A program made the position numbers and the translations under genes. Source: Shigella phage MK-13. Taken from it: a DNA stretch of 64,000 nucleotides. The DNA is taken from the sequence record MK509462; one strand, written 5' to 3'. The notes beneath the pieces are model-generated. The model saw only the letters and a program-made list of their open reading frames with translations. It had not been told where the DNA came from and made no database searches. Positions 4,317 through 56,859 of this stretch are shown here, in pieces; position 1 is the stretch's first letter, and the number at the start of each line of letters is the position of its first letter.

Positions 4317-4327
4317 CTAAATACCCC
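4317..4327 (+). promoter_or_regulatory. late-promoter-like motif CTAAATACCCC with 5'-UTR hairpin (ataccccta / taggggtat, 4321..4355)
   Basis: CTAAATAcccc followed by inverted repeat whose 3' arm supplies a GGGG Shine-Dalgarno 7 nt before ATG 4361. Confidence 0.45.
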
Positions 4328-4360
4328 TAGATGAAACGAACACATTTAGGGGTATTTGAA

Positions 4361-7295: not shown

Positions 7296-7313
7296 AAGCC
7301 CCTTCAGGGGCTT
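7296..7313 (+). terminator. hairpin aagcccc-ttca-ggggctt (weak terminator, no clear U-tract)
   Basis: Perfect 7-bp GC-rich stem between tailspike A and B. Confidence 0.35.
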
Positions 7314-7336
7314 CGTGAGAACAACAGGAGATTCAC

Positions 7337-9439
7337 ATGAATCCGCAATTCAATCAGCCGAAAGGTTCAACGGCCAAAGAAATCAACAAAAACCCGCGTG
7401 AATTATGGCGTCGGACTTTGTCGGAATTGGGTCTTAATTTGGTCGAAGGTAGTTTTGAAGACGGTGCTACTGTGGCGACTGCAACTGACGTCGTGTGGCA
7501 TATCAATGGCGCCCAGTGTTACACCTGGGGTGGGTCTTTACCCAAGACTGTAGACAAAAACTCAACACCGCAATCAACTGGTGGGATATCCGGAGAAGCT
7601 TGGAAGAAATACGATGAAACTTCTCAGGTTACGACACCAGGATACTATGGCGGAACTTGTTTCCCCACGGAAAATAATCTCTCCTTGGCCGTCGGGGATA
7701 TTATCCCGTCAGGAGTAATGTTCGTCAGAATTGATGGTAATCTGATGATGATGAGTTCTTCTCTGACGGAACCCGTGACTGTCACCAGTTTTGATCAGAC
7801 TGTGATCAATGGCTTGCATGAGTTGTATCCAGTATCATTCTTTAACGAAGTGATCACGGGATGGAAGATTGCCCAGAATGACGCACAGCTTACGCGTTTA
7901 CTCCCAAAGGCAGGGAATATTTACATTGGTTATTCTCCAGTGAAAGTTGAAGGAATCTTCATTATTCAGGGAGATATCCGACTCAAGCCATTGCTGCCAA
8001 AAGTAACCGTTGATTCACGTCAGTTCTGGTTGAGATCGCCGCGCGCCTGGAACGAAACAAACCAGGAATATGACTACACCGCGTACGATATTCGTATTGT
8101 CGGTAACTTCCTGTTTGACTTCTATAGGCAAGATGCTTCCTTTGACCCAGGCGTTGGACTAGCTATGCAGTCCGCTGGAACTCTGGAGCTTTCCGGGTGT
8201 GAGTTACAAGGTGCGTGGAGAAGCAACGTAACCATGGATTATGGGCGCTGGTCTATTGCAGACAACTTGTATTCACATGATTGTGGCAGGGGGCAGATTC
8301 AAAATCCAGATGGTAGCAACCGCAATGGTATGGCTATTATTGTTGGTAATGCGACAGAAGCACATATCCATCATATCCGCACCAGAACCACTTGGGCATC
8401 CTCTGTCTTTGTTGATTCTTACCGCCCTGGACGAACGCTTAACGTGATGATCCATGACGTTAGTATTAACGGTTCTGGTGGTAACGGCCTGCGCCTTCAA
8501 TCTGACGATCTTGTTACCGGTGTTGGCGGCGGGCAGGGTACTGCAATTACTCGTGTAAACATCAGCGGCGTAACAATTAAAAACTGTGAATCGCATGGCA
8601 TCCGCGCAAACTTCACCAACGGAAGCGTTACGGGCGTATACATTGAGTCATGTAACGCGGGTATTGCCATTGAGGGTTCTAGTGATGTCACGTATGACAA
8701 CATCACCATCAGGAATTGCTCACAGCCAATCCTCTGTCGATATTATCCGGTAGTCTGCACACGCCTGCGATTTAGTAATATCTTAATATCAGGCCACACA
8801 GATTGGGCTGTGTTCTTTTTGCGTAAGGATGGCTCCTCTCACACGGTAAATCTAGGTGATATTGAATTCGACGGGTTGACAATCCACTGCACACAACCTG
8901 GTTCTAAAGCTGTTATGATTAACTGCGGGTCGAACGCAACAGCTACTTCCGACATCACTATGAAGAACGTGCGTATTGTTGGCGCATTTCCTGATACAGA
9001 CGGAACAGCACTCTGTCAGATTCATAATGCACGACATATTGAAGTAGATAACTGGAACATCAGAGGTGTTAACGGGCTTCCTAGTTCTTATTTGTATGCG
9101 CAAGCATCTCAGAGCTTGAACGTGCATCGCCTGGTTGGCGTTCAACCGTTTGGTACTGTTGATCGTCCTATTGAGTGCGTTGGCGTGGCTGGTCACGTAA
9201 ACATTGTGAATTGTTCTGTTCCTGTAACCACGAACGGAATATTATATACTTCAACTCCTGCATCCCGTTACGAAGAAGGGAACCAGTTTTACAATAGCGC
9301 TCAACCACAACAATTCCCGTTCACCAACGCTGGGCAGTTGCGTGGTGGTGATGTGAACACGTTAACAACCACGCAACTGGCAAACATAGTGGCTACGCTG
9401 ATTAACGATATTAGCCTGGGTAAATTCGTAATCAGATAA
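7337..9439 (+). CDS. tailspike protein B (conserved MNPQFNQPKGS N-terminal head-binding module plus beta-helix)
   Basis: 700 aa; N-terminus MNPQFNQPKGS...YTWGGSLPK shared with tailspike D; beta-helix repeats (VNISGVTIKNCESHGIRAN, YIESCNAGIAIEG, ITIRNCSQP). Confidence 0.7.
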   Translation: MNPQFNQPKGSTAKEINKNPRELWRRTLSELGLNLVEGSFEDGATVATATDVVWHINGAQCYTWGGSLPKTVDKNSTPQSTGGISGEAWKKYDETSQVTTPGYYGGTCFPTENNLSLAVGDIIPSGVMFVRIDGNLMMMSSSLTEPVTVTSFDQTVINGLHELYPVSFFNEVITGWKIAQNDAQLTRLLPKAGNIYIGYSPVKVEGIFIIQGDIRLKPLLPKVTVDSRQFWLRSPRAWNETNQEYDYTAYDIRIVGNFLFDFYRQDASFDPGVGLAMQSAGTLELSGCELQGAWRSNVTMDYGRWSIADNLYSHDCGRGQIQNPDGSNRNGMAIIVGNATEAHIHHIRTRTTWASSVFVDSYRPGRTLNVMIHDVSINGSGGNGLRLQSDDLVTGVGGGQGTAITRVNISGVTIKNCESHGIRANFTNGSVTGVYIESCNAGIAIEGSSDVTYDNITIRNCSQPILCRYYPVVCTRLRFSNILISGHTDWAVFFLRKDGSSHTVNLGDIEFDGLTIHCTQPGSKAVMINCGSNATATSDITMKNVRIVGAFPDTDGTALCQIHNARHIEVDNWNIRGVNGLPSSYLYAQASQSLNVHRLVGVQPFGTVDRPIECVGVAGHVNIVNCSVPVTTNGILYTSTPASRYEEGNQFYNSAQPQQFPFTNAGQLRGGDVNTLTTTQLANIVATLINDISLGKFVIR

Positions 9440-9473: not shown

Positions 9474-9484
9474 CTAAATACCCC
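9474..9484 (+). promoter_or_regulatory. late-promoter-like motif CTAAATACCCC with 5'-UTR hairpin (ataccccata / tatggggtat, 9478..9510)
   Basis: Same architecture as at 4317; GGGG of 3' arm 8 nt before ATG 9517. Confidence 0.45.
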
Positions 9485-9516
9485 ATATTGGCAAATCCTC
9501 TATGGGGTATCTTCAA

Positions 9517-12324: not shown

Positions 12325-12458
12325 CAATGAGGAACTACACCACCAGTCAACACTAGACATTCTCGAAATTAGACTTCTTGGCGTTTAAACCCAAAATGCA
12401 GAAGAAACGAGTATTATTTGAATTCAATAAACATGACTAAAACAACAGGAGATTCTTT

Positions 12459-14248: not shown

Positions 14249-14280
14249 AAAGCCCCTCAGATGAGGGGCTTTTTCTTTCT
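14249..14280 (+). terminator. rho-independent terminator (aaagcccctc-agat-gaggggcttt + TTTTCTTTCT)
   Basis: 10-bp stem, 4-nt loop, U-tract; lies inside the ORF-track N-terminal extension of the next ORF, which is therefore not coding. Confidence 0.7.
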
Positions 14281-14300
14281 ATTCCTCGGTTGGCTGTATA

Positions 14301-14307
14301 CTAAATA
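14301..14307 (+). promoter_or_regulatory. late-promoter-like motif CTAAATA
   Basis: About 35 nt upstream of ATG 14342, downstream of terminator. Confidence 0.4.
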
Positions 14308-14341: not shown

Positions 14342-17300
14342 ATGCAAGAAATGAACCTCAACCGCCGCCCATACTGGGATGATTGGAATCCAGAGAAGCG
14401 TTTTTCACGCATCCTGTTCCGTCCGGCTCCTATCAAAGTTCAGACCCGTGAACTGAACCAGATGCAGACCATCTTCCAGGATCAGCTGGAGAAACTCGGG
14501 AACCATCTGTTCAAAGACGGTTCGATGGTTATCCCCGGCGGCCTGACAATCACCAACACCGCAGTGTCCATGAAGTTCACTCTGGCTGGTGGTAGCGAGT
14601 TCACCGATCTGGAAGGTATCTCCGAACTCTATGTTCTGGGTAAGGACAACAATGCGAAAGCGCGCGTCCTGTCTCTGGAACGTTACCTGGCTGAGCCGGA
14701 TACAATGTACGCCATCTTAGAGATGACTGAGAGTGGTAGTTCAGACGGTTTCGAAGCTGGTGACAACCTGTACTTCAACACCTACGACGTGAACGATAAC
14801 TTCATCCGTGTCGGCTATGGTGTGGCTGCTACTGTCGGTGGCTCTATTGTTGCGCGCATGACCAAAGGCGTTTACTTTGTCCGCGGTATGTTCCTGGATG
14901 TTGAGGCTGCTACCCTGATCGTCGACAACGCATCCAACTCCACCTCACACCGGGTGGGCTTCAAAGTAACAGAGACCATCGTCACCGAAACCGAAGACGA
15001 AAGTCTGTTCTCCAATGCTCAGGGTACTCCGAACTCCAAAGCCCCTGGTGCGCATCGCCTGCGCATCGACCTCGTGTTGTCTCGCTACGGTTATGATGAA
15101 GAAGTGGCCGACTTCGTAGAGCTGGCGAAAGTCAAAGACGGGCGCATTCAGTCCATGGTGACCCAGTCCACCTACAACATCCTCGAAGACAGTATGGCGC
15201 AGCGCACTTATGAGACCAACGGGGATTACAACGTCTCCACTCATCAGATCGACCTGCGTGAACATCTGAAACAGAACAACAACGGCGGCGTTTATACTCC
15301 TGCCGAAGGTGGTGACGAAAGCAAATTCGTGGCGGTTATGAAGCCAGGCATTTCCTACGTTCGTGGCCGTCGTATCGAAAACCTCGGCGAAGAACTGGTC
15401 ACAATCGACAAAGCCCGTGACACTGATATCTTGAACAACAACCCTGTGGCTGTTGCGACTGGCAACTATCTGGTGTCCAAGAACTCCAAAGGGGTTCCGG
15501 TTGTCTCTCGCACAATCCGTTACAAGTTCCTGAACGCATCCAGCGCTGTCCAGGCCACTGCCCTCCTGATTTCAGCAGAACGTTCTGGGGCGGAATTCCG
15601 TCTGTATATGCGCGACCTGGTTGTGACTGGGGACATGGGTACTGTCACGAAGGTTGCATACGAAGAAAGCGGCACAACGATGTTCTCTTGCGAACTGGAG
15701 TCTAATCAGTTCAGCCAGAGTTCGGCGATTGACCTGATCTTCCCTCTGCCTGTATTTGGCGTGAAGACCCTGGCTCCTACTGGCAACATTGATATCAACT
15801 ACACCGTCCTGCGGTCAAACAAGATCACGTTGAACGCCGCTGGTGCAGGCTCAATCTCTGCTCCTCTGGGTTACAGCTTCAGCCCTGAATTCTCTTTGTA
15901 CTCAGCGGCGAAGGCAGACGGCACTGCAGCTCAGTTTGATATCTCTTCGGGACTGTCCCTGACTGGTACTCCGGTCGGTTCAGCACTGCAGATTTCCCTG
16001 GGCGCGGGGTACGCCAACCAGTCTATCAACCTGTTGGCACTGATGGTCCGCACCACAGCGACGATCAAGACCAAGACTGTTACCGAAGTCACCGAGACTG
16101 TGACGTTCACTTCGGCGGCCAGCGTACAGCTGAACAACCACGACGGTTACAAGCTGGTCAGCGTGAAGAACGCAAATGGCGCTGACGTCACCTCTAACTT
16201 CACTCTGGACGGCGGCCAGCGTGATGCTGCATACTATCGTTCTAACCTGTTATCGGGCACTGGAGCCATTTCAGGGACGTTCACGGTGGTGTATCAGTAT
16301 TTCGCTCACAGCTCTGGTGATTTCTTCACAGCGGATTCCTATTCTTCCATCGATTACCCAGACATCCCGAACTATGTTTCGTCCAGTTCTGGTACTGTGT
16401 ATGGCCTGGCAGACTGCCTGGACTTCCGTCCTAAGATCACCAGCGGTGCTTCCGACACTGATATGGTTCGCCCGAACACTGCTATCGTCCTCGATGCGGA
16501 GTACTATCTGCCTCGTATTGATGCTGTGTATCTGGCCGACAACGGCGTGTTTAACGTTGCGCGTGGTGTGAGTTCCAACAACCTGGCTTCGCCTGCGATC
16601 CCCGACAACGGCATGCGTCTGTACGAATTGATGATCCCGCCTTACACGGCCAACATCGACGATATTCAGATTCGTACCATCGACAACCGTCGTTACACGA
16701 TGCGTGATATCGGTAAACTGGAGACCCGTATCTCCAATGTTGAATACTACACCTCACTGTCACAGCTGGAATCTTCAGCTATGACTCAGCAGGTGTTCGA
16801 CCCGATCACTGGCAACCCGCGCTTCAAAAACGGTATCGCTGCCGACCCGTTCAAAGACTTCCGTCTGATCGACGATTTGTCTGCTGACTGGGTAGGTTCA
16901 ATCGACACTGACAATGGTCGCCTACGCCCGTTCGTTCAGCAGAATGCGGTTGACCTGACGCCAGTGGGCTGGAACAACGTTCAGGATGGCATGGTTGTAT
17001 GCAACTACACCCGTGAGATCTCTGTGCGCCAGGATTATGCGACCACGACCATCAACGTGAACCCATATGCGGTATTCAACTGGGAAGGTTTCCTGAAGCT
17101 GAACCCGACCACCGACTACTGGTTCGAGAACTACTATGTTGCTCCACGTGTGATCAACGAAACGATCAACACACGCGGCGCGATCAAAGAAGGTTCCGTG
17201 TATGGCACATGGCGTACTGTGTCTGTGTCTGAGCGTGTGTGGGAACCACATGGCGCAGGCGGCGTATGGTGGGGCTACCGCTACCGCACGACTGTGTCTA

Positions 17301-20545: not shown

Positions 20546-20572
20546 AAAGGCGGGTTCCCCCGCCCTTCTTTT
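20546..20572. terminator. bidirectional hairpin terminator (ggcggg-ttcc-cccgcc flanked by A-run and T-run)
   Basis: Sits between convergent genes 19791..20543 (+) and 20571..20783 (-). Confidence 0.55.
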
Positions 20573-20812: not shown

Positions 20813-20820
20813 CTAAATAC
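20813..20820 (+). promoter_or_regulatory. late-promoter-like motif CTAAATAC
   Basis: About 30 nt upstream of ATG 20843, followed by imperfect ataccttcaa/ttgagggtat repeat supplying GAGGG RBS. Confidence 0.4.
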
Positions 20821-20842
20821 CTTCAAAATTGAGGGTATCGAT

Positions 20843-25089: not shown

Positions 25090-25096
25090 CTAAATA
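25090..25096 (+). promoter_or_regulatory. late-promoter-like motif CTAAATA
   Basis: About 43 nt upstream of sheath ATG 25139. Confidence 0.4.
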
Positions 25097-27034: not shown

Positions 27035-27112
27035 TGGAACATGCCCTCTTCGGAGGGCAATTTCATTGAAGGCACTAATTAGAATTGTGTAACTCTTTTT
27101 GGAGAATCTATA

Positions 27113-27678: not shown

Positions 27679-27712
27679 TCACTAATTACAAGAAAATGTT
27701 GAGGACTTAATC

Positions 27713-29404
27713 ATGGCATTCGGTAATGGTGCATTCGGTAACGGGTTCTTCGGTCTGTTCGGTACTGGCGGGAAGATTGAAGCCCCGGTAGACACCGACA
27801 AACTGGTAACGAACCAAGAAGAGAAGTTGCTTTCAAAAGCGGCTGTTGTTGCGCTGGACGATGCTCAGGATGGTTCTATCATCTTGCAGGGCGGTGCCAA
27901 CACATTCAATTTCGTAGGCGTTGAGAGTGAACTACTCAGCGTCAAACAAGTCGTCGAAGAATATCAGTCTATGGCTCAGCAACCTGAGATCCGTAAGGCT
28001 GTCGATATTATCGTGAACGACGTCGTCACCTGTGAAGAGGATGAGACTCCCGTCACAATCAATCTGGAAAAGGTTGAAGGCATCGACGACTCCATCAAAG
28101 AAAAGATCAATGATGCCTTCAAGGAAGTTCTTGAACTCATGGACTTCAACAACACCGCATATCAAAAGATCCGTCGTTGGTATGTAGAAGGTCGTCAAGC
28201 ATACCATGTTGTCGTAGATCCAAAGAACAAGAAAGGTGGTATTGCCAAACTGGTGATGCTGGATTCGCGCTGCATCCGCCCTGTATACATCGTGAAGAAA
28301 GAAGTTCGCGACGGCATCGAGGTAATTGGAGAAGTCAAACTTCAATACTACTACAACCCGAACTACAACCGCAATCAGTTTACTGGGCAATCGGGCACGT
28401 CTCAGAACTTCCAGCCGTCACAGCAGGAACTGGTGTTTGATGAAGAAAGCGTTGTCTACATCGACAGTGGTGAAGATCCGTTGGCCAATGGGGTTATCCC
28501 AGGCTTGCTGAACCCTGCTATCCGTCCCCTGAACAACCTCGTTACAACTGAGGATGCGACGGTCATCTACGCCATCACGCGTGCTCCAGAGAAGCGAGCG
28601 TTCTATCTCGACGTGGGTACTCTGGGTAAGAAGTCTGCGGAAGAGTATATGCAGGCGATGATGGGTAAATTCAAGAACCGTCTGGCGTATGATCGCACCA
28701 CTGGTAAAGTGGCAGGCAATACCCATCTGATGGGTATCGCTGAAGACTACTGGTTGCCGCGCCGCGAAGGGCAGAACGCAACGGAGATATCCAACGTAGG
28801 TGGCGGCGATCAACTGGGTCAAATGGATCATGTGGTATACTTCCGCGAGAAGCTCTACGAGGCTCTGATGATCCCTAAGAGCCGCCTCCAAGAGGAAGGT
28901 TCCATCAACATCGGTGGTTCCAATCTTGCCGAAATCACCCAGGAAGAACTGCGCTTCAACAAATTCTGCGCAGGCCTGCGCCGTCGTTATTCAGGATTCT
29001 TCCTTGAACTTCTTCGTCGTCAGCTGATCCTGAAGAACATCACTGACCAGACTGATTGGAACGAAAAGATCAAGCCGTTTGTCAAGTTCGAATTTACATC
29101 TGACAGCTTCATTCGTGAGCAGCAGGAAAACGAAATCCTGGCGCAACGCATGTCTGCTCTTGGTCAGATCGAACCGTACATTGGCACCCTGTTCTCTATC
29201 GATTATGCTCAGCGCAATCTGCTGCGTATGTCTGACGAAGACATCAAAGATCAGCAAGAGAAGATCGCGCAAGAGAAGAAAGAAGGCAAATATCCTGAAG
29301 TGCAGGCAGATGAATCAGGCGGCTTCGGCGGCGGTGAAGTCAGCCCACTGAAATTCAGACCTAACGTCATCCCAGCGACTAACCCTCCTGGTGGTGAAGA
29401 ATAA
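27713..29404 (+). CDS. portal vertex protein, gp20-like
   Basis: 563 aa in gp20 position between tube and prohead-core genes; GAGGA RBS. Confidence 0.65.
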   Translation: MAFGNGAFGNGFFGLFGTGGKIEAPVDTDKLVTNQEEKLLSKAAVVALDDAQDGSIILQGGANTFNFVGVESELLSVKQVVEEYQSMAQQPEIRKAVDIIVNDVVTCEEDETPVTINLEKVEGIDDSIKEKINDAFKEVLELMDFNNTAYQKIRRWYVEGRQAYHVVVDPKNKKGGIAKLVMLDSRCIRPVYIVKKEVRDGIEVIGEVKLQYYYNPNYNRNQFTGQSGTSQNFQPSQQELVFDEESVVYIDSGEDPLANGVIPGLLNPAIRPLNNLVTTEDATVIYAITRAPEKRAFYLDVGTLGKKSAEEYMQAMMGKFKNRLAYDRTTGKVAGNTHLMGIAEDYWLPRREGQNATEISNVGGGDQLGQMDHVVYFREKLYEALMIPKSRLQEEGSINIGGSNLAEITQEELRFNKFCAGLRRRYSGFFLELLRRQLILKNITDQTDWNEKIKPFVKFEFTSDSFIREQQENEILAQRMSALGQIEPYIGTLFSIDYAQRNLLRMSDEDIKDQQEKIAQEKKEGKYPEVQADESGGFGGGEVSPLKFRPNVIPATNPPGGEE

Positions 29405-29441
29405 TTCGACTAAGTATAGAAAACATTTAGAGGATATGAAC

Positions 29442-29609
29442 ATGGCCGCTATCGATCTGGTAAAAGCAATCATCGCTGGTGACACCGATGCTGCTGTTGC
29501 TGAATGTCAAACTGAACTGTCTGCTCGCGCCCAAGAACTCGTTCAACAGGGCACCGCATATGTCATGAACTCTCTGAGTCAAGACATGTCTCCTGCGCAA
29601 GACGAATAA
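29442..29609 (+). CDS. small prohead core protein (gp67-like position)
   Basis: ORF 29391..29609; ATG 29442 is 7 nt after AGAGGA; small acidic protein between portal and protease as in T4 (20-67-68-21). Confidence 0.35.
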   Translation: MAAIDLVKAIIAGDTDAAVAECQTELSARAQELVQQGTAYVMNSLSQDMSPAQDE

Positions 29610-29932: not shown

Positions 29933-30601
29933 ATGATGAAACTGTTGCGTGAGATCACGGCGATAGGGAAAGACCTCCAAATTGGTGAAAGCACGACCTC
30001 CACCGGGGGTAAGGCTATGTTCATCGAAGGTCCATTCGTGATGTGTAATCAGGTGAACCGTAATGGACGCAACTACGATCTCCAGAAAGTGGGCATACCA
30101 GCTGTCGAAGCATATGACAAAGAGTATGTTCAGGATCGTCGCGCAATCGGTGAACTCAAACATCCCGACTACCCTTTCCCAGATATTGCTGAAGCTGCGC
30201 TGAAGACCGAGAGCCTCCGTTGGGAGGGTACAAACGCAATCGGTCGAGCGCGCGTGCTAAATACACCAAAAGGCCAGATCATTCGTGCTCTGGCTGAAGC
30301 AGACTTCAACTTGGCCGTGTCTACACGTGGCCTTGGTGAGACCAAGTCGGTGAACGGTTATGACGACGTTCAACCTGGCTTTATGCTCACTGCTGTTGAT
30401 GCAGTCGACCGTCCTTCTGGACAAGTTTGTTATGTAAAGGCTGTGAGCGAATCTGTTGAATGGCAGCTTGATGAATCTTCAGGGATTTGGGTTCCTAAAG
30501 ACATCAAAGGGCAAGTCGTCGATTCATTGGTGAAAACCAATATTCAGTTCGAAGACGACTTCCTGCGCCGCCTCGATATCGCATTGAGACATCTGGGCTG
30601 A
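29933..30601 (+). CDS. prohead core scaffold protein and protease, T4 gp21-like
   Basis: GELKHPDYP, GRARVL, VSTRGLG, VDAVDRPS correspond to gp21 GELNHP, GRARVI, VSSRGLG, VDAVWGPS. Confidence 0.8.
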   Translation: MMKLLREITAIGKDLQIGESTTSTGGKAMFIEGPFVMCNQVNRNGRNYDLQKVGIPAVEAYDKEYVQDRRAIGELKHPDYPFPDIAEAALKTESLRWEGTNAIGRARVLNTPKGQIIRALAEADFNLAVSTRGLGETKSVNGYDDVQPGFMLTAVDAVDRPSGQVCYVKAVSESVEWQLDESSGIWVPKDIKGQVVDSLVKTNIQFEDDFLRRLDIALRHLG

Positions 30602-30612
30602 ATTCAGCCTCA

Positions 30613-30619
30613 CTAAATA
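30613..30619 (+). promoter_or_regulatory. late-promoter-like motif CTAAATA
   Basis: About 28 nt upstream of scaffold ATG 30647. Confidence 0.4.
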
Positions 30620-31557: not shown

Positions 31558-31610
31558 GAACTACTAAGTAATTTCAACTTAACTGAATATCAATGTAAGG
31601 AATGACCATC

Positions 31611-32953: not shown

Positions 32954-32980
32954 AAACCCCGCTTCGGCGGGGTTTTTCAT
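32954..32980 (+). terminator. rho-independent terminator (aaaccccgc-ttcg-gcggggttt + TTTCATT)
   Basis: 9-bp GC stem, tetraloop, T-run; directly after the major capsid gene. Confidence 0.75.
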
Positions 32981-33025
32981 TATGGGGATTCGCTATATGA
33001 TGTGCCAAACTAATTGGAGGCCATC

Positions 33026-33253: not shown

Positions 33254-33345
33254 TTCCTTTATCGTGTCGATTTAATACCCGCGTTGTTCAATACACCTGC
33301 CTGTTGTATGCTTGTACAGTCAACCATACAACAGGAGTACAAATC

Positions 33346-33938: not shown

Positions 33939-33998
33939 CAGTTTTCAATAACGGGGTGAGAGGTATTATTGCCCCGTCTACTATCCGAGGGCTGTGCC

Positions 33999-36653: not shown

Positions 36654-36665
36654 CTAAATACCCCC
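36654..36665 (+). promoter_or_regulatory. late-promoter-like motif CTAAATACCCCC with 5'-UTR hairpin (36658..36682)
   Basis: CTAAATAccccc then ataccccca / tgggggtat inverted repeat before ATG 36688. Confidence 0.45.
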
Positions 36666-36687
36666 ATCATCCATGGGGGTATTTTCT

Positions 36688-38096: not shown

Positions 38097-38597
38097 ATGT
38101 CCGACGTACAATTCAAGAACGAAAACCCTAATTTCGCGGCGTCCGATAAGTGGCGTCTGACTATCGGAGACCTTGTACTCCTAACCCGTAACATCCACGA
38201 CTTCAGTATACCAGGAGTGTACTCTGAAGGCATCGATGGTCCGTCTCCTGGCGACGTACTGGTTTCTATCCCTTCAGAACGTTTAACCTATGATCCCGTC
38301 GTATTTACTTTCGTTATAGACGAGGACTGGAAATCATGGTTACAGATCCACCAATGGATCACCAGCAACGTCGGCAAGGATTTGGCTGTCTCCAAGGACA
38401 TTACCATTGAATTACTGGATAACCTCAACCGACCGATTGGCCTCACTCTCGTGCTGGAGGAAGCCCGTCCGACTGCTCTGGACAACGTACTGGTGGATGT
38501 GGACGCGGCTGTACCTCAGCTGGTGACGACAGTGACGTTCAAGTTCCAGCAGCTGGTCCCACTATCTGGTGGGAAGGTGATTGATTCTAATCCATGA
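38097..38597 (+). CDS. hypothetical protein
   Basis: 166-aa ORF divergent from the lipoprotein gene; AAAGGTG RBS. Confidence 0.45.
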   Translation: MSDVQFKNENPNFAASDKWRLTIGDLVLLTRNIHDFSIPGVYSEGIDGPSPGDVLVSIPSERLTYDPVVFTFVIDEDWKSWLQIHQWITSNVGKDLAVSKDITIELLDNLNRPIGLTLVLEEARPTALDNVLVDVDAAVPQLVTTVTFKFQQLVPLSGGKVIDSNP

Positions 38598-38639
38598 AAT
38601 ACGGTATAATTCTATGACATTGACAAGCTGGGATATTTT

Positions 38640-39092: not shown

Positions 39093-39838
39093 TGGCATCT
39101 CTCCAAGCCCTGCGCAAGCTGAACGACTTCGAAAATCGTCATTACACATTCCAGCAGTACGAACTTCCTCATAAGGAACTGGAGTGTGTGACGACGGAGA
39201 ACGGTCGTCATTATGTGTCACCAACTGGTGTCAAGCTGACGTCTGTAACGACGATGCTGGGGCGTACTGGTGATCATGAATGGCTTGAGGCTTGGAGGGA
39301 GAAGCTGGGTGCAGAGGCCGCCGACCTTGAGACCATGCGTTGCGCTGACCGAGGGGAGAAGCTGCACCTCGCATGTGAACTGTATTTGAAGAACCGCCCA
39401 ATGAAAGAAGTGTTGGAAGCGGCTGGCGAATACATGTTCATGTTCAAGCAGCTGTTCCCCTATCTGAACAAGATGACAAAGATCTATGCTCAGGAGATCC
39501 CGTTATATAGCGAGGTGCTTGGTCTCGCAGGTCGAGTGGACCTTATCGGGGTTTATGAGGGTAAGCCTGCTATCATCGACTTCAAGACATCGAACACCAT
39601 GAAGACGCGGGGAATGATCGAGGACTACAGTATCCAGCTGTGCTTGTACTCTGTTATGTTCCAGCAGATGTTCGGTGTCAAGATCACCCGCCTCATCAAT
39701 GTGATTGCCAACGAGTCATCGTTGACGCCAACCATCATAGAGTTCAACCGCGATGACATACTGACGAAGATGTTTGAGCGTGTTCGTCTGTACCATCGCA
39801 TGGATAAAGAACAGAACGGAGTCTGGCCGGATCGCTAA
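39092..39838 (+). CDS. PD-(D/E)xK family nuclease (Cas4/RecB-like fold, tentative)
   Basis: ORF 39014..39838; start ATG 39092 overlapping upstream stop (TGATG). GRVDLIGVYEGKPAIIDFKTS has the D...(D/E)xK arrangement. Confidence 0.5.
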   Translation: MASLQALRKLNDFENRHYTFQQYELPHKELECVTTENGRHYVSPTGVKLTSVTTMLGRTGDHEWLEAWREKLGAEAADLETMRCADRGEKLHLACELYLKNRPMKEVLEAAGEYMFMFKQLFPYLNKMTKIYAQEIPLYSEVLGLAGRVDLIGVYEGKPAIIDFKTSNTMKTRGMIEDYSIQLCLYSVMFQQMFGVKITRLINVIANESSLTPTIIEFNRDDILTKMFERVRLYHRMDKEQNGVWPDR

Positions 39839-39845
39839 ATACCCC
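39835..39845 (+). promoter_or_regulatory. late-promoter-like motif CTAAATACCCC
   Basis: About 26 nt upstream of uvsW ATG 39867; T4 uvsW is late-expressed. Confidence 0.4.
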
Positions 39846-42083: not shown

Positions 42084-42752
42084 ATGCAAGAGATCACTCT
42101 CTCCGAACGTACACTCCAGTTGCTGGCCAACTTTGAGACCATCAACCCATCTATCGTTCTGACACCGGGTAAGATGCTGCGCAGCATTAACGATTCGTCT
42201 ACTGTTATCGCCGTGGCACAGATCGAAGAAGACTTCCCGTTTGAGTTCCCTATCCTGGACCTGACCAAACTTCTGGCCATCCAGCGCCTGCCTTCCTTCA
42301 AAGGCGGTAAAGCCGAATTCCATCAGGACTACATCCTGTTGAAAGGCGAAAGCTCTCAGCTGCAATTCTGGCGTTCTGCTAAAGAACTCACTGTTGTTCC
42401 GGCTGACACCATTGAACTGCCGTCTGTCGACTTTGAAGCGATCATCACTCCAGAGAAGATGAAAGAACTGACCCGCGCCTGTTCTACCCTCGGTCACAAG
42501 ACTGTGCGCCTGGTTGCTCAGGGTGGCAAAACTCGTCTGGTTGCAACCACCACTACCCTGGATAACTCCAACAACTACACCGTTGAGCTGGGTGAAACCG
42601 CGCTGCCGGACTTCGTCATGCCACTGGACGTTGCCAACCTGAAGATGATCGAAGGCAACTACACTCTGCGTGCCTGCGCTGAGCTGCAGATGGTGAACTT
42701 CCAATCATCCGACGCGACGATCAATTACTTCGTCGGCGCACAGATTGAGTAA
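42084..42752 (+). CDS. sliding clamp, T4 gp45-like
   Basis: N-terminus LQLLANFETINPSIVLTPGKM resembles gp45 ALLKNFATINSGIMLKSGQF; 222 aa; GAGGA RBS. Confidence 0.8.
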   Translation: MQEITLSERTLQLLANFETINPSIVLTPGKMLRSINDSSTVIAVAQIEEDFPFEFPILDLTKLLAIQRLPSFKGGKAEFHQDYILLKGESSQLQFWRSAKELTVVPADTIELPSVDFEAIITPEKMKELTRACSTLGHKTVRLVAQGGKTRLVATTTTLDNSNNYTVELGETALPDFVMPLDVANLKMIEGNYTLRACAELQMVNFQSSDATINYFVGAQIE

Positions 42753-42765
42753 TCAATCTCCAGCC

Positions 42766-42774
42766 TGATGCTAT
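42766..42774 (+). promoter_or_regulatory. extended -10 sigma70-like element TGcTATAAT
   Basis: TGnTATAAT at 42766..42774 in the gp45-gp44 junction; no canonical -35. Confidence 0.3.
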
Positions 42775-42833
42775 AATGTGTGGGCGGGGGCGTTCCCCGC
42801 CTATTTGAAATGATTCTTCTACACGAGGCTGAA

Positions 42834-43827: not shown

Positions 43828-44250
43828 ATGGCCGCCCCTGGATTGTTCGATTACCTGGCTGCTCTGAACAGCAGCAAAGAAAACCTTCTGCAGTCTGATG
43901 ACCCAGAAGTGTTGAAAGGATTCGACCCGTTTATGACGCGGCGTGGTTTAGCTCAGAGCAAAGACACTCTGGTGACTGCACAGCAGATGAACAAGCTGCA
44001 TGCCGTTACTCCATGGATGCAATGGTCATATGCCTTTCACACCATTCCGGCGCGGAAACGCTACGACAAATGGTCTAAGAAAGGTCCGATTGATCCTGAC
44101 GTGAAGTTGCTCTCCGAGTACTTCTACATCAGCATGGAGAAGGCATCCGAGTACGTCCGTTTCTTGCCGAAGGAAGTCCTGGCCGAGATACGCGAGAAGA
44201 TGGGACGTACTGAGCTGAACGCCAAAGCGAAACCGCGCAAGGCTAAGTAG
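43828..44250 (+). CDS. clamp loader small subunit, gp62-like (by synteny)
   Basis: 140 aa immediately after gp44-like (4-nt gap), as in T4 order 45-44-62-regA. Confidence 0.5.
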   Translation: MAAPGLFDYLAALNSSKENLLQSDDPEVLKGFDPFMTRRGLAQSKDTLVTAQQMNKLHAVTPWMQWSYAFHTIPARKRYDKWSKKGPIDPDVKLLSEYFYISMEKASEYVRFLPKEVLAEIREKMGRTELNAKAKPRKAK

Positions 44251-46920: not shown

Positions 46921-47035
46921 AGATTCCCTTTACTTCATTCTTCAATAACTTTTTTCAACGTATTATTGACCTCACTTAAACGAAGCGCCCTGGCAAACGG
47001 GGCGCACATTTGAACTGAAACAGGAAGACTACATC

Positions 47036-56826: not shown

Positions 56827-56840
56827 TTCTATAAACTCCG

Positions 56841-56859
56841 GCGGGGTATGATTACCCCG
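56841..56859 (+). repeat. palindromic hairpin gcggggtatgattaccccg (copy 1; copy 2 at 57399..57420)
   Basis: Identical 19-nt hairpin recurs 560 nt downstream; each is followed by (C)TATTTGAA...ACTATATC-ATG. Confidence 0.6.

Follow-up and report, generated by a model that had tools for sequence, protein, structure and literature searches.

Late-promoter boxes joined to hairpins over the Shine-Dalgarno sequence in Shigella phage MK-13 and related Ackermannviridae

This study concerns a 64,000-nucleotide (nt) stretch of Shigella phage MK-13 (sequence record MK509462, one strand, 5' to 3'; hereafter the window) and, within it, the heptamer CTAAATA, which stands in front of virion and other late-type genes and in five leaders is joined to a hairpin that contains the ribosome-binding site (RBS). 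The window is that of an Agtrevirus (Ackermannviridae) whose nearest relatives are P46FS4, Ag3 and ChubbyThor. Over about 5 kb around the element, Shigella phage ChubbyThor comes closest (97.6%), ahead of Ag3, Gloob, SKML-39 and Dickeya LIMEstone-type phages, all of them Ackermannviridae. Several genes of Salmonella phage P46FS4 (genus Agtrevirus) are 100% identical to window genes, and the two sequences are collinear from ~14 kb onward, the tailspike region being the main difference. A profile query of IMG/VR gained only phiMAM1-like loci as distant relatives, and a search of the whole window against Rfam gave no family at its gathering score.

CTAAATA occurs ten times in the window, on the + strand in all ten cases. 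In 100 dinucleotide shuffles, its mean count was 3.17 (standard deviation 1.8, maximum 7) and none of the shuffles reached ten. Nine of the ten copies are located 30-49 nt (box start to ATG) 5' of the start codons at 478, 4361, 9517, 14342, 20843, 25139, 30647, 36688 and 39867, and the products of the genes behind them, according to PHROGs profiles and relatives, are of virion or late type. A sequence-only reading of this DNA, made earlier, had placed the heptamer on the + strand 25 to 45 nt before nine late-type genes; all nine were recovered, at the measured distances given above, and the remaining copy is intragenic. The ten copies are as follows (+1, transcript start):

431-437, + strand: late-promoter box of the gp6 baseplate wedge gene (ATG 478); predicted +1 at A443.
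4317-4323, + strand: late-promoter box of a tailspike gene (ATG 4361); predicted +1 at A4329; the orthologous site of LIMEstone1 is annotated "putative late promoter".
9474-9480, + strand: late-promoter box of the second boxed tailspike gene (ATG 9517); predicted +1 at 9486/9487.
14301-14307, + strand: late-promoter box of a VriC-like gene (1612 amino acids; VriC-like in P46FS4; ATG 14342), directly 3' of the intrinsic terminator 14249-14272.
20813-20819, + strand: late-promoter box of the head-closure/neck gene (ATG 20843); predicted +1 at A20825.
25090-25096, + strand: late-promoter box of the tail sheath gene (ATG 25139).
30257-30263, + strand: intragenic CTAAATA, spanning Leu-Asn-Thr codons of the prohead protease gene.
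30613-30619, + strand: late-promoter box of the scaffold gene (ATG 30647).
36654-36660, + strand: late-promoter box of the gene for a 242-amino-acid protein, called structural in several relatives (ATG 36688); predicted +1 at A36666.
39835-39841, + strand: late-promoter box of a UvsW-like helicase gene (ATG 39867); the box includes the stop codon of the upstream gene.

At the synonymous sites of relatives, the intragenic copy at 30257 reads TTAAATA, TTAAACA, CTGAACA or CTGAATA. Because it is not kept there, we consider it a chance copy, and an internal promoter at this position was ruled out. The intergenic boxes, unlike this copy, are present in every relative examined. The whole P46FS4 genome contains 19 copies of CTAAATA (+ strand, 15; - strand, 4), of which 14 have an ATG within 60 nt; 13 of these ATGs begin an open reading frame (ORF) of at least 40 codons and one begins an ORF of 23 codons. 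Outside Ackermannviridae, the relatives of the 242-amino-acid protein encoded from 36688 belong to Felix-O1-like phages.

One-base variants of the box are also found on the + strand of the window, ~30-45 nt 5' of a start codon: the tail tube and portal genes have CTAATTA, and the major capsid gene, regA and an ORF at 29442 have CTAAGTA. These five sites (27075-27081, 27682-27688, 29410-29416, 31564-31570 and 44243-44249) are probably further late promoters missed by an exact-match count. The degenerate motif CTAANTA has 16 matches on the + strand and a single one on the - strand, which is a palindromic overlap.

The box is the T4-type, presumably gp55-dependent late promoter of the ViI-like phages (Ackermannviridae), and its identity as a late promoter has already been published. 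CTAAATAcCcc is one of the two "unique regulatory motifs" ascribed to these phages in PMC7283392, and in the LIMEstone1 record (HE600015) the label "putative late promoter" is attached to TAAATA in the orthologous tailspike leaders; both refer to the same sequence and to the same orthologous sites as the window boxes. The accessible text of these accounts treats the bare motif and makes no mention of an inverted repeat or of a link with the Shine-Dalgarno sequence, and the CTAAATA motif was not identified in the genome papers of Ag3 (PMC3121705) and CBA120. CTAAATA differs by one base from (T)ATAAATA. At the site orthologous to the 36654 box, Taipeivirus-type loci have TTTAAATA, Kuttervirus-type loci have TATAAATA or TTAAATA and phiMAM1 has ATAAATA. 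The proposal that the box is a one-base variant of the T4 late promoter is therefore well founded, given the canonical TATAAATA at one orthologous site of Kuttervirus-type relatives, the placement before late genes, the restriction to the coding strand and the conservation across four genera. The same heptamer is the late promoter of Aeh1, where it occupies -12 to -6 from the putative start and is recognised by a divergent gp55 (PMC1524935); Aeh1 is, however, a T4-like phage of the Straboviridae, and no cCcc extension has been reported for it. P46FS4 encodes gp55 (ORF72), gp33 (ORF109) and the sliding clamp gp45 (ORF40, corresponding to window 42084-42752), and so do Ag3 (PMC3121705) and phiMAM1; the gp55 gene is situated just past the end of the window. 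No -35 element is conserved among 14 promoters of the window, the information content between -40 and -2, counted from the box, never exceeding 0.4 bit per position. In T4, the late box lies about one helical turn 5' of the start site and late promoters are AT-rich directly after the box (PMC2988020).

Each leader was folded from the box to the ATG and the stability was expressed together with a z-score. Five of the nine leaders form a hairpin that starts in the box:

4318-4358, + strand: hairpin of 16 base pairs (bp) with 5' arm 4318-4333 (six box bases plus CCCCTAGATG) and 3' arm 4343-4358; Shine-Dalgarno GGGG at 4349-4352; -21.0 kcal/mol, z -8.1.
9478-9510, + strand: hairpin with 5' arm 9478-9487 (ATACCCCATA) and 3' arm 9501-9510 (TATGGGGTAT); GGGG at 9504-9507; -16.3 kcal/mol, z -5.2.
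36656-36684, + strand: hairpin with 5' arm 36656-36667 (AAATACCCCCAT) and 3' arm 36673-36684 (ATGGGGGTATTT); GGGGG at 36675-36679; followed by TTCT; -17.2 kcal/mol, z -5.1.
20817-20838, + strand: hairpin pairing 20817-20825 with 20830-20838 (ATACCTTCA / TGAGGGTAT), one G-U pair; -10.2 kcal/mol, z -4.5.
436-474, + strand: interrupted hairpin pairing 436-443 and 445-448 with 462-465 and 467-474; GGAG at 468-471; -13.2 kcal/mol, z -3.0.

In all five hairpins, the 3' arm carries purines resembling a Shine-Dalgarno sequence (GGGG, GAGGG or GGAG), 7-9 nt 5' of the ATG, with the AUG itself outside the helix, and the 5' arm begins within the box, at box base 2 to 6, taking in 2-6 box bases and the next 4-5 bases. 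The inverted repeats announced by the sequence-only reading at 4317, 9474 and 36654, and in imperfect form at 20813, are thus real (z -4.5 to -8.1), its suggestion that the 3' arm supplies the Shine-Dalgarno sequence applies to every hairpin, and that at 431, which it had not described, is added here. No significant structure was obtained for the other four leaders, those of 14301, 25090, 30613 and 39835 (z -0.4 to -1.0): at most, that of 25090 shows a weak 5-bp CTTTC/GAAGG pairing and that of 39835 an interrupted weak pairing, and that of 30613 has a small CTGAA/TTCAG stem which lies beside the Shine-Dalgarno sequence and does not cover it. None of the five variant-box promoters has a hairpin that sequesters the RBS. 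Control leaders of P46FS4 also contain strong stem-loops; among those inspected, the stem-loops at 14597 and 40863 sit 5' of a free Shine-Dalgarno sequence and the one at 28703 partly overlaps it.

The position of the arms relative to the expected start of transcription is informative. Counted from the first base of the box, base 13 or 14 (the predicted +1 or its 3' neighbour) is an A in 13 of the 14 promoters, and 7-11 of the 9-16 nt of the 5' arms are located 5' of the predicted +1, the box bases and the CCCC being among them in every case. With the box included, the RNAs fold at -23.2 (4317), -16.6 (9474), -11.4 (20813) and -20.4 kcal/mol (36654), and RNAs that begin at the predicted +1 fold at only -3.2, -3.7, -4.0 and -4.6 kcal/mol, respectively; the drop is smaller at 431 (from -15.9 to -8.2 kcal/mol). 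In the RNAs from the predicted +1, the Shine-Dalgarno sequence is outside any strong helix. Since a T4-type start would fall ~6 nt after the box, the late transcript would lack most of the 5' arm and, provided that we infer this start correctly, could not form the hairpin.

This geometry leaves little room for the model of the sequence-only reading, in which late transcripts start at or before the box, so that the mRNA begins with a hairpin whose 3' arm provides the RBS within a structured leader. 5'-terminal hairpins do stabilise some bacterial mRNAs, and the hairpins and the Shine-Dalgarno sequence in their 3' arm are as that model describes them. However, the stems include 2-6 bases of a -10-like box, which is by definition 5' of the start site, the predicted start (supported by the conserved A 6-7 nt after the box) lies 3' of most of the arm, and the RNAs from the predicted start reach no more than -3 to -5 kcal/mol at four sites out of five, which does not agree with structured leaders on late messages. 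Moreover, a helix as stable as -16 to -21 kcal/mol around the Shine-Dalgarno sequence would prevent initiation and not promote it, the weaker hairpin of T4 gene e (-13.3 kcal/mol) already cutting lysozyme synthesis 100-fold (PMC3014915). We consider this model highly improbable. As the hairpin would be formed solely on RNAs initiated upstream, its likely effect is the opposite of the one proposed.

We suggest that the hairpins, present at five of about 14 late promoters, are probably examples of the device known from T4 in which a late promoter is placed inside a hairpin that hides the RBS. The box and the pyrimidine run that follows it (CCCC, CCTTC or TCTTC) would serve as an anti-Shine-Dalgarno arm pairing with the gene's own Shine-Dalgarno sequence. 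An RNA initiated upstream, at early promoters or at other late ones, would include both arms, conceal the RBS in a hairpin of -10 to -21 kcal/mol and stay untranslated. An RNA made from the embedded late promoter would start ~6 nt after the box, be devoid of most of the 5' arm, expose the Shine-Dalgarno sequence and be translated. The outcome would be a gene whose expression is tied to its own late promoter and insulated from upstream transcription.

The T4 precedents are precise. Longer early transcripts of genes e, soc, 49 and I-TevI fold into a helix that hides the Shine-Dalgarno sequence, the AUG or both, and late promoters are located in the DNA for the 5' strand of this helix, so that late transcripts lack that strand and are well translated (PMC3014915). 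I-TevII, I-TevIII, segB and mobE of Aeh1 show the same promoter-in-hairpin arrangement (PMC2988022). The T4 e leader (TTATAAATACCTTCTATAAATACTTAGGAGGTATTATG in the genome record) has a 5' arm that starts at the 5th box base, and it has a 10-mer, AAATACCTTC, in common with window 20815-20824 in the 20813 leader. The register is the same: the ATA of the box and a pyrimidine anti-Shine-Dalgarno run pair with the Shine-Dalgarno sequence and TAT. The 36654 gene resembles T4 soc in being a late gene within an early region. The differences are that the window phage belongs to Ackermannviridae and not to Straboviridae, that its box is CTAAATA and not TATAAATA, that its stems are often longer and stronger (to -21 kcal/mol) and that the genes concerned encode baseplate, tailspike, neck and other virion proteins, whereas the T4-type cases are lysis, decoration and homing endonuclease genes. 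In addition, the T4 e-type mechanism was demonstrated by experiment, and that of the window hairpins is predicted from sequence. In the literature, to which our access was incomplete, we found no description of these hairpins for Ackermannviridae.

The hairpins persist in Limestonevirus, Taipeivirus, Kuttervirus-type loci and Miltonvirus, with changes in the sequence and length of the loops and in the box variants. The 4317 hairpin is conserved in Limestonevirus, Kuttervirus-type loci and phiMAM1, and that of 431 is kept in phiMAM1 with a different sequence. In the alignment of 36654 orthologs, all cells pair and 10 of the 12 pairs are invariant; there is one change to G-U and one compensatory change (T-A to C-G, in phiMAM1), and the core CCCC/GGGG and ATA/TAT pairs are invariant. 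Arm-specific pairing was measured on paralogs, with nine leaders aligned on the box (five window leaders, three of phiMAM1 and one of P46FS4) and 500 shuffles of the 3' arms among them. Although the leaders had been picked because they fold and their register was taken from their own predicted structures, the cells paired in 96.7% of cases against 80.6% in the shuffles (0/500), 6 of the 10 pairs were altered on both sides (3/500) and covariation reached 0.55 against 0.19 (0/500). Each 5' arm fits its own 3' arm, beyond what any G-rich Shine-Dalgarno sequence would allow.

These data bear on the idea that a C-rich promoter element and a G-rich Shine-Dalgarno sequence are complementary by chance, the structure itself not being selected. 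A separate constraint on each arm would indeed fit the invariant core. However, pairing extends past this core with locus-specific partners (TAGATG/CATTTA, ATA/TAT, CAT/ATG and CAC/GTG), cognate arms pair far better than shuffled ones, and leaders devoid of CCCC (TCTTCA at 431, CCTTCA at 20813 and GCTCTAA at gp6 of phiMAM1) pair with their own, differing Shine-Dalgarno sequences. Furthermore, CCCC is missing where expression is highest, in the promoters of the major capsid, tube, portal and sheath genes, and it is unlikely to aid promoter opening because T4 late promoters favour A/T just after the box (PMC2988020). We regard an unselected by-product as distinctly unlikely. The absence of CCCC from the capsid, tube, portal and sheath promoters suggests reading the published "cCcc" as an anti-Shine-Dalgarno arm, present in a subset of promoters, and not as part of the promoter.

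The paralog stems also contain seven G-U cells, and in the six G-U-containing hairpins the sense strand folds better than the antisense strand, which points to a sense-strand RNA and not to DNA. The repeats overlap the promoter and could in principle act as a cruciform or as a single-strand hairpin recognised at promoter opening, and hairpin promoters have a precedent in the virion RNA polymerase of phage N4. On the other strand, however, the seven G-U cells would be A-C mismatches, the loops (5-13 nt, of variable length) disfavour extrusion and most late promoters of the window are without a repeat. A DNA cruciform was rejected on the G-U pairs and the long variable loops, and we give recognition at the DNA level almost no credence.

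The proposed insulation requires RNA that reads through from upstream. The three strongest hairpins (4317, 9474 and 36654) have co-directional upstream genes with no terminator-like site in between, and read-through RNA across them is plausible; the 14301 box, directly 3' of the strong terminator 14249-14272, has no hairpin. The second published motif, TTCAAT-N14-TATAAT, which is sigma-70-like and presumably early, has 16 matches in the window with at most two mismatches, against 3.5 expected. Three of them, on the + strand at 32976-33001, 33287-33312 and 33944-33969, are situated 5' of a block of small genes that runs into 36654.

Two other explanations of the hairpins were considered. The first takes them as intrinsic terminators or attenuators of the upstream unit, after which the late promoter restarts transcription. 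None of the five came out of a terminator-like scan, on which basis termination was rejected as a general explanation. The evident terminators of the window (14249, 20549, 27042 and 31533) have tetraloop-type GC stems and T tails, whereas the loops at 431, 4317, 9474 and 20813 reach 9-13 nt and the tails there are poor in T (AAACATG, GAAATG, CTTCAAATG and CGATATG, respectively). The arm-specific pairing always includes the Shine-Dalgarno sequence, which termination does not need. At 36654 alone a second role of this kind remains credible, as the GC-rich core is followed by TATTTTCT (a borderline tail) and the ortholog in Klebsiella phage Magnus is annotated "terminator", with the RBS inside. 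Termination and occlusion of the Shine-Dalgarno sequence have the same net effect and could coexist; as the explanation of the hairpins, termination appears unlikely.

The second invokes translational coupling, in which a ribosome terminating on the upstream gene would melt the 5' arm and expose the Shine-Dalgarno sequence on a polycistronic RNA. The spacing fits at two sites, 36654 (TGA, 36649) and 4317 (TAA, 4308), where the upstream stop ends 7-10 nt before the 5' arm. It does not fit at 9474, with a stop 39 nt 5' of the arm, nor at 431 and 20813, which have no co-directional upstream gene, and a terminating ribosome reaches, given its footprint, at most the first few base pairs of stems of 12-16 bp. 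Coupling was rejected on this geometry and appears very unlikely to us.

Several observations weigh against the reading that the hairpins silence read-through RNA, besides the choice of leaders in the paralog comparison. At 431 and 20813, the preceding genes are divergent and a source of read-through is not evident; a terminator-like site (20549-20564) also precedes 20813. The junctions at 25090, 30613 and 39835 are co-directional and have no terminators, yet they are without a strong hairpin, so that the hairpin rule is not general. The genes upstream of 4317 and 9474 are late as well, and the benefit there is thus not one of early versus late timing as for T4 e; the gain would be insulation or stoichiometry. 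Covariation among the 36654 orthologs is minimal and not significant, near-invariant pairs being expected because both arms also have promoter or Shine-Dalgarno roles. Finally, a literature search located neither mapped transcript 5' ends nor RNA-seq or translation data for phages of the Ackermannviridae, for which reason start sites and read-through are argued here by analogy.

The hairpins also have a bearing on the start codons. The upstream in-frame ATGs at 4331, 9502 and 36673 had been thought to be probably unused, and comparison with relatives agrees: the ATG matching 4331 is followed in relatives by ACA TGA and the one matching 9502 in LIMEstone1 by GGG TAT TAA, both with an in-frame stop, and the one matching 36673 is absent beyond the closest clade. 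PHROG profiles and the annotations of P46FS4 and LIMEstone1 begin at the downstream ATGs. Gene starts can therefore be corrected for at least three genes, to 4361, 9517 and 36688 instead of 4331, 9502 and 36673.

With the identity of the promoter already known, the hairpins are most likely a new case of a known T4-type control. This offers a functional reading for a motif that is quoted without explanation in genome papers on therapeutic and biocontrol phages. If this is confirmed, the T4 promoter-in-hairpin device would be found in a second family and would act on structural genes, tailspike cassettes among them. More tentatively, "cCcc" may not be a promoter determinant at all, and promoter-embedded translational insulators may exist family-wide, making certain virion genes, notably exchanged tailspike cassettes, translatable solely from their own late promoter; a swapped-in tailspike cassette would then bring its own context-independent expression unit. 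If the mechanism holds, a gene transplanted for host-range engineering by tailspike swap should carry both box and hairpin, or drop both on purpose. Annotators should also be aware that such hairpins get labelled as terminators, as in phage Magnus.

Further observations were made on the tailspike leaders. The loops of the tailspike hairpins (4324-4343, 9481-9500 and orthologs) are nearly as conserved across genera as the stems, in spite of unrelated upstream sequence and 60-75% identity of the downstream protein; the late mRNA would begin with these loops. A recent exchange of tailspike cassettes by way of the leaders could also account for this conservation. The tailspike genes at 7337 and 12459 are without a late box and share a near-identical leader, GAACAACAGGAGATTC, before the ATG (7300-7336 and 12420-12458); the same leader also precedes two tailspike genes of P46FS4. 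Tailspike genes are thus found with two types of leaders, boxed with a hairpin and unboxed.

Beyond the range of the window, P46FS4 146900-146966 (- strand) combines a CTAAATA box with an 11-bp hairpin (ATACCCCATAC/GTGTGGGGTAT, -17.2 kcal/mol). This box precedes an unannotated 23-codon ORF whose stop codon TAA is inside a second CTAAATACCCC box serving the next gene. Other matches of the early-type motif in the window are located on the + strand at 38585-38610, 42752-42777, 46941-46966 and 56827-56852, and a perfect copy on the - strand at 168-193 points away from gp6. This copy is in a region of ~300 nt without ORF (132-430), between the start of a - strand gene (~131) and the gp6 late box, which contains a small GC hairpin (317-331) and has no Rfam match. 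Finally, at 14277-14307, just after the terminator, a sigma-70-like -10 hexamer (TATACT) and a TTCTAT-type upstream hexamer abut the 14301 box (TATACTAAATA), and the VriC-like gene may have both an early-type and a late promoter.

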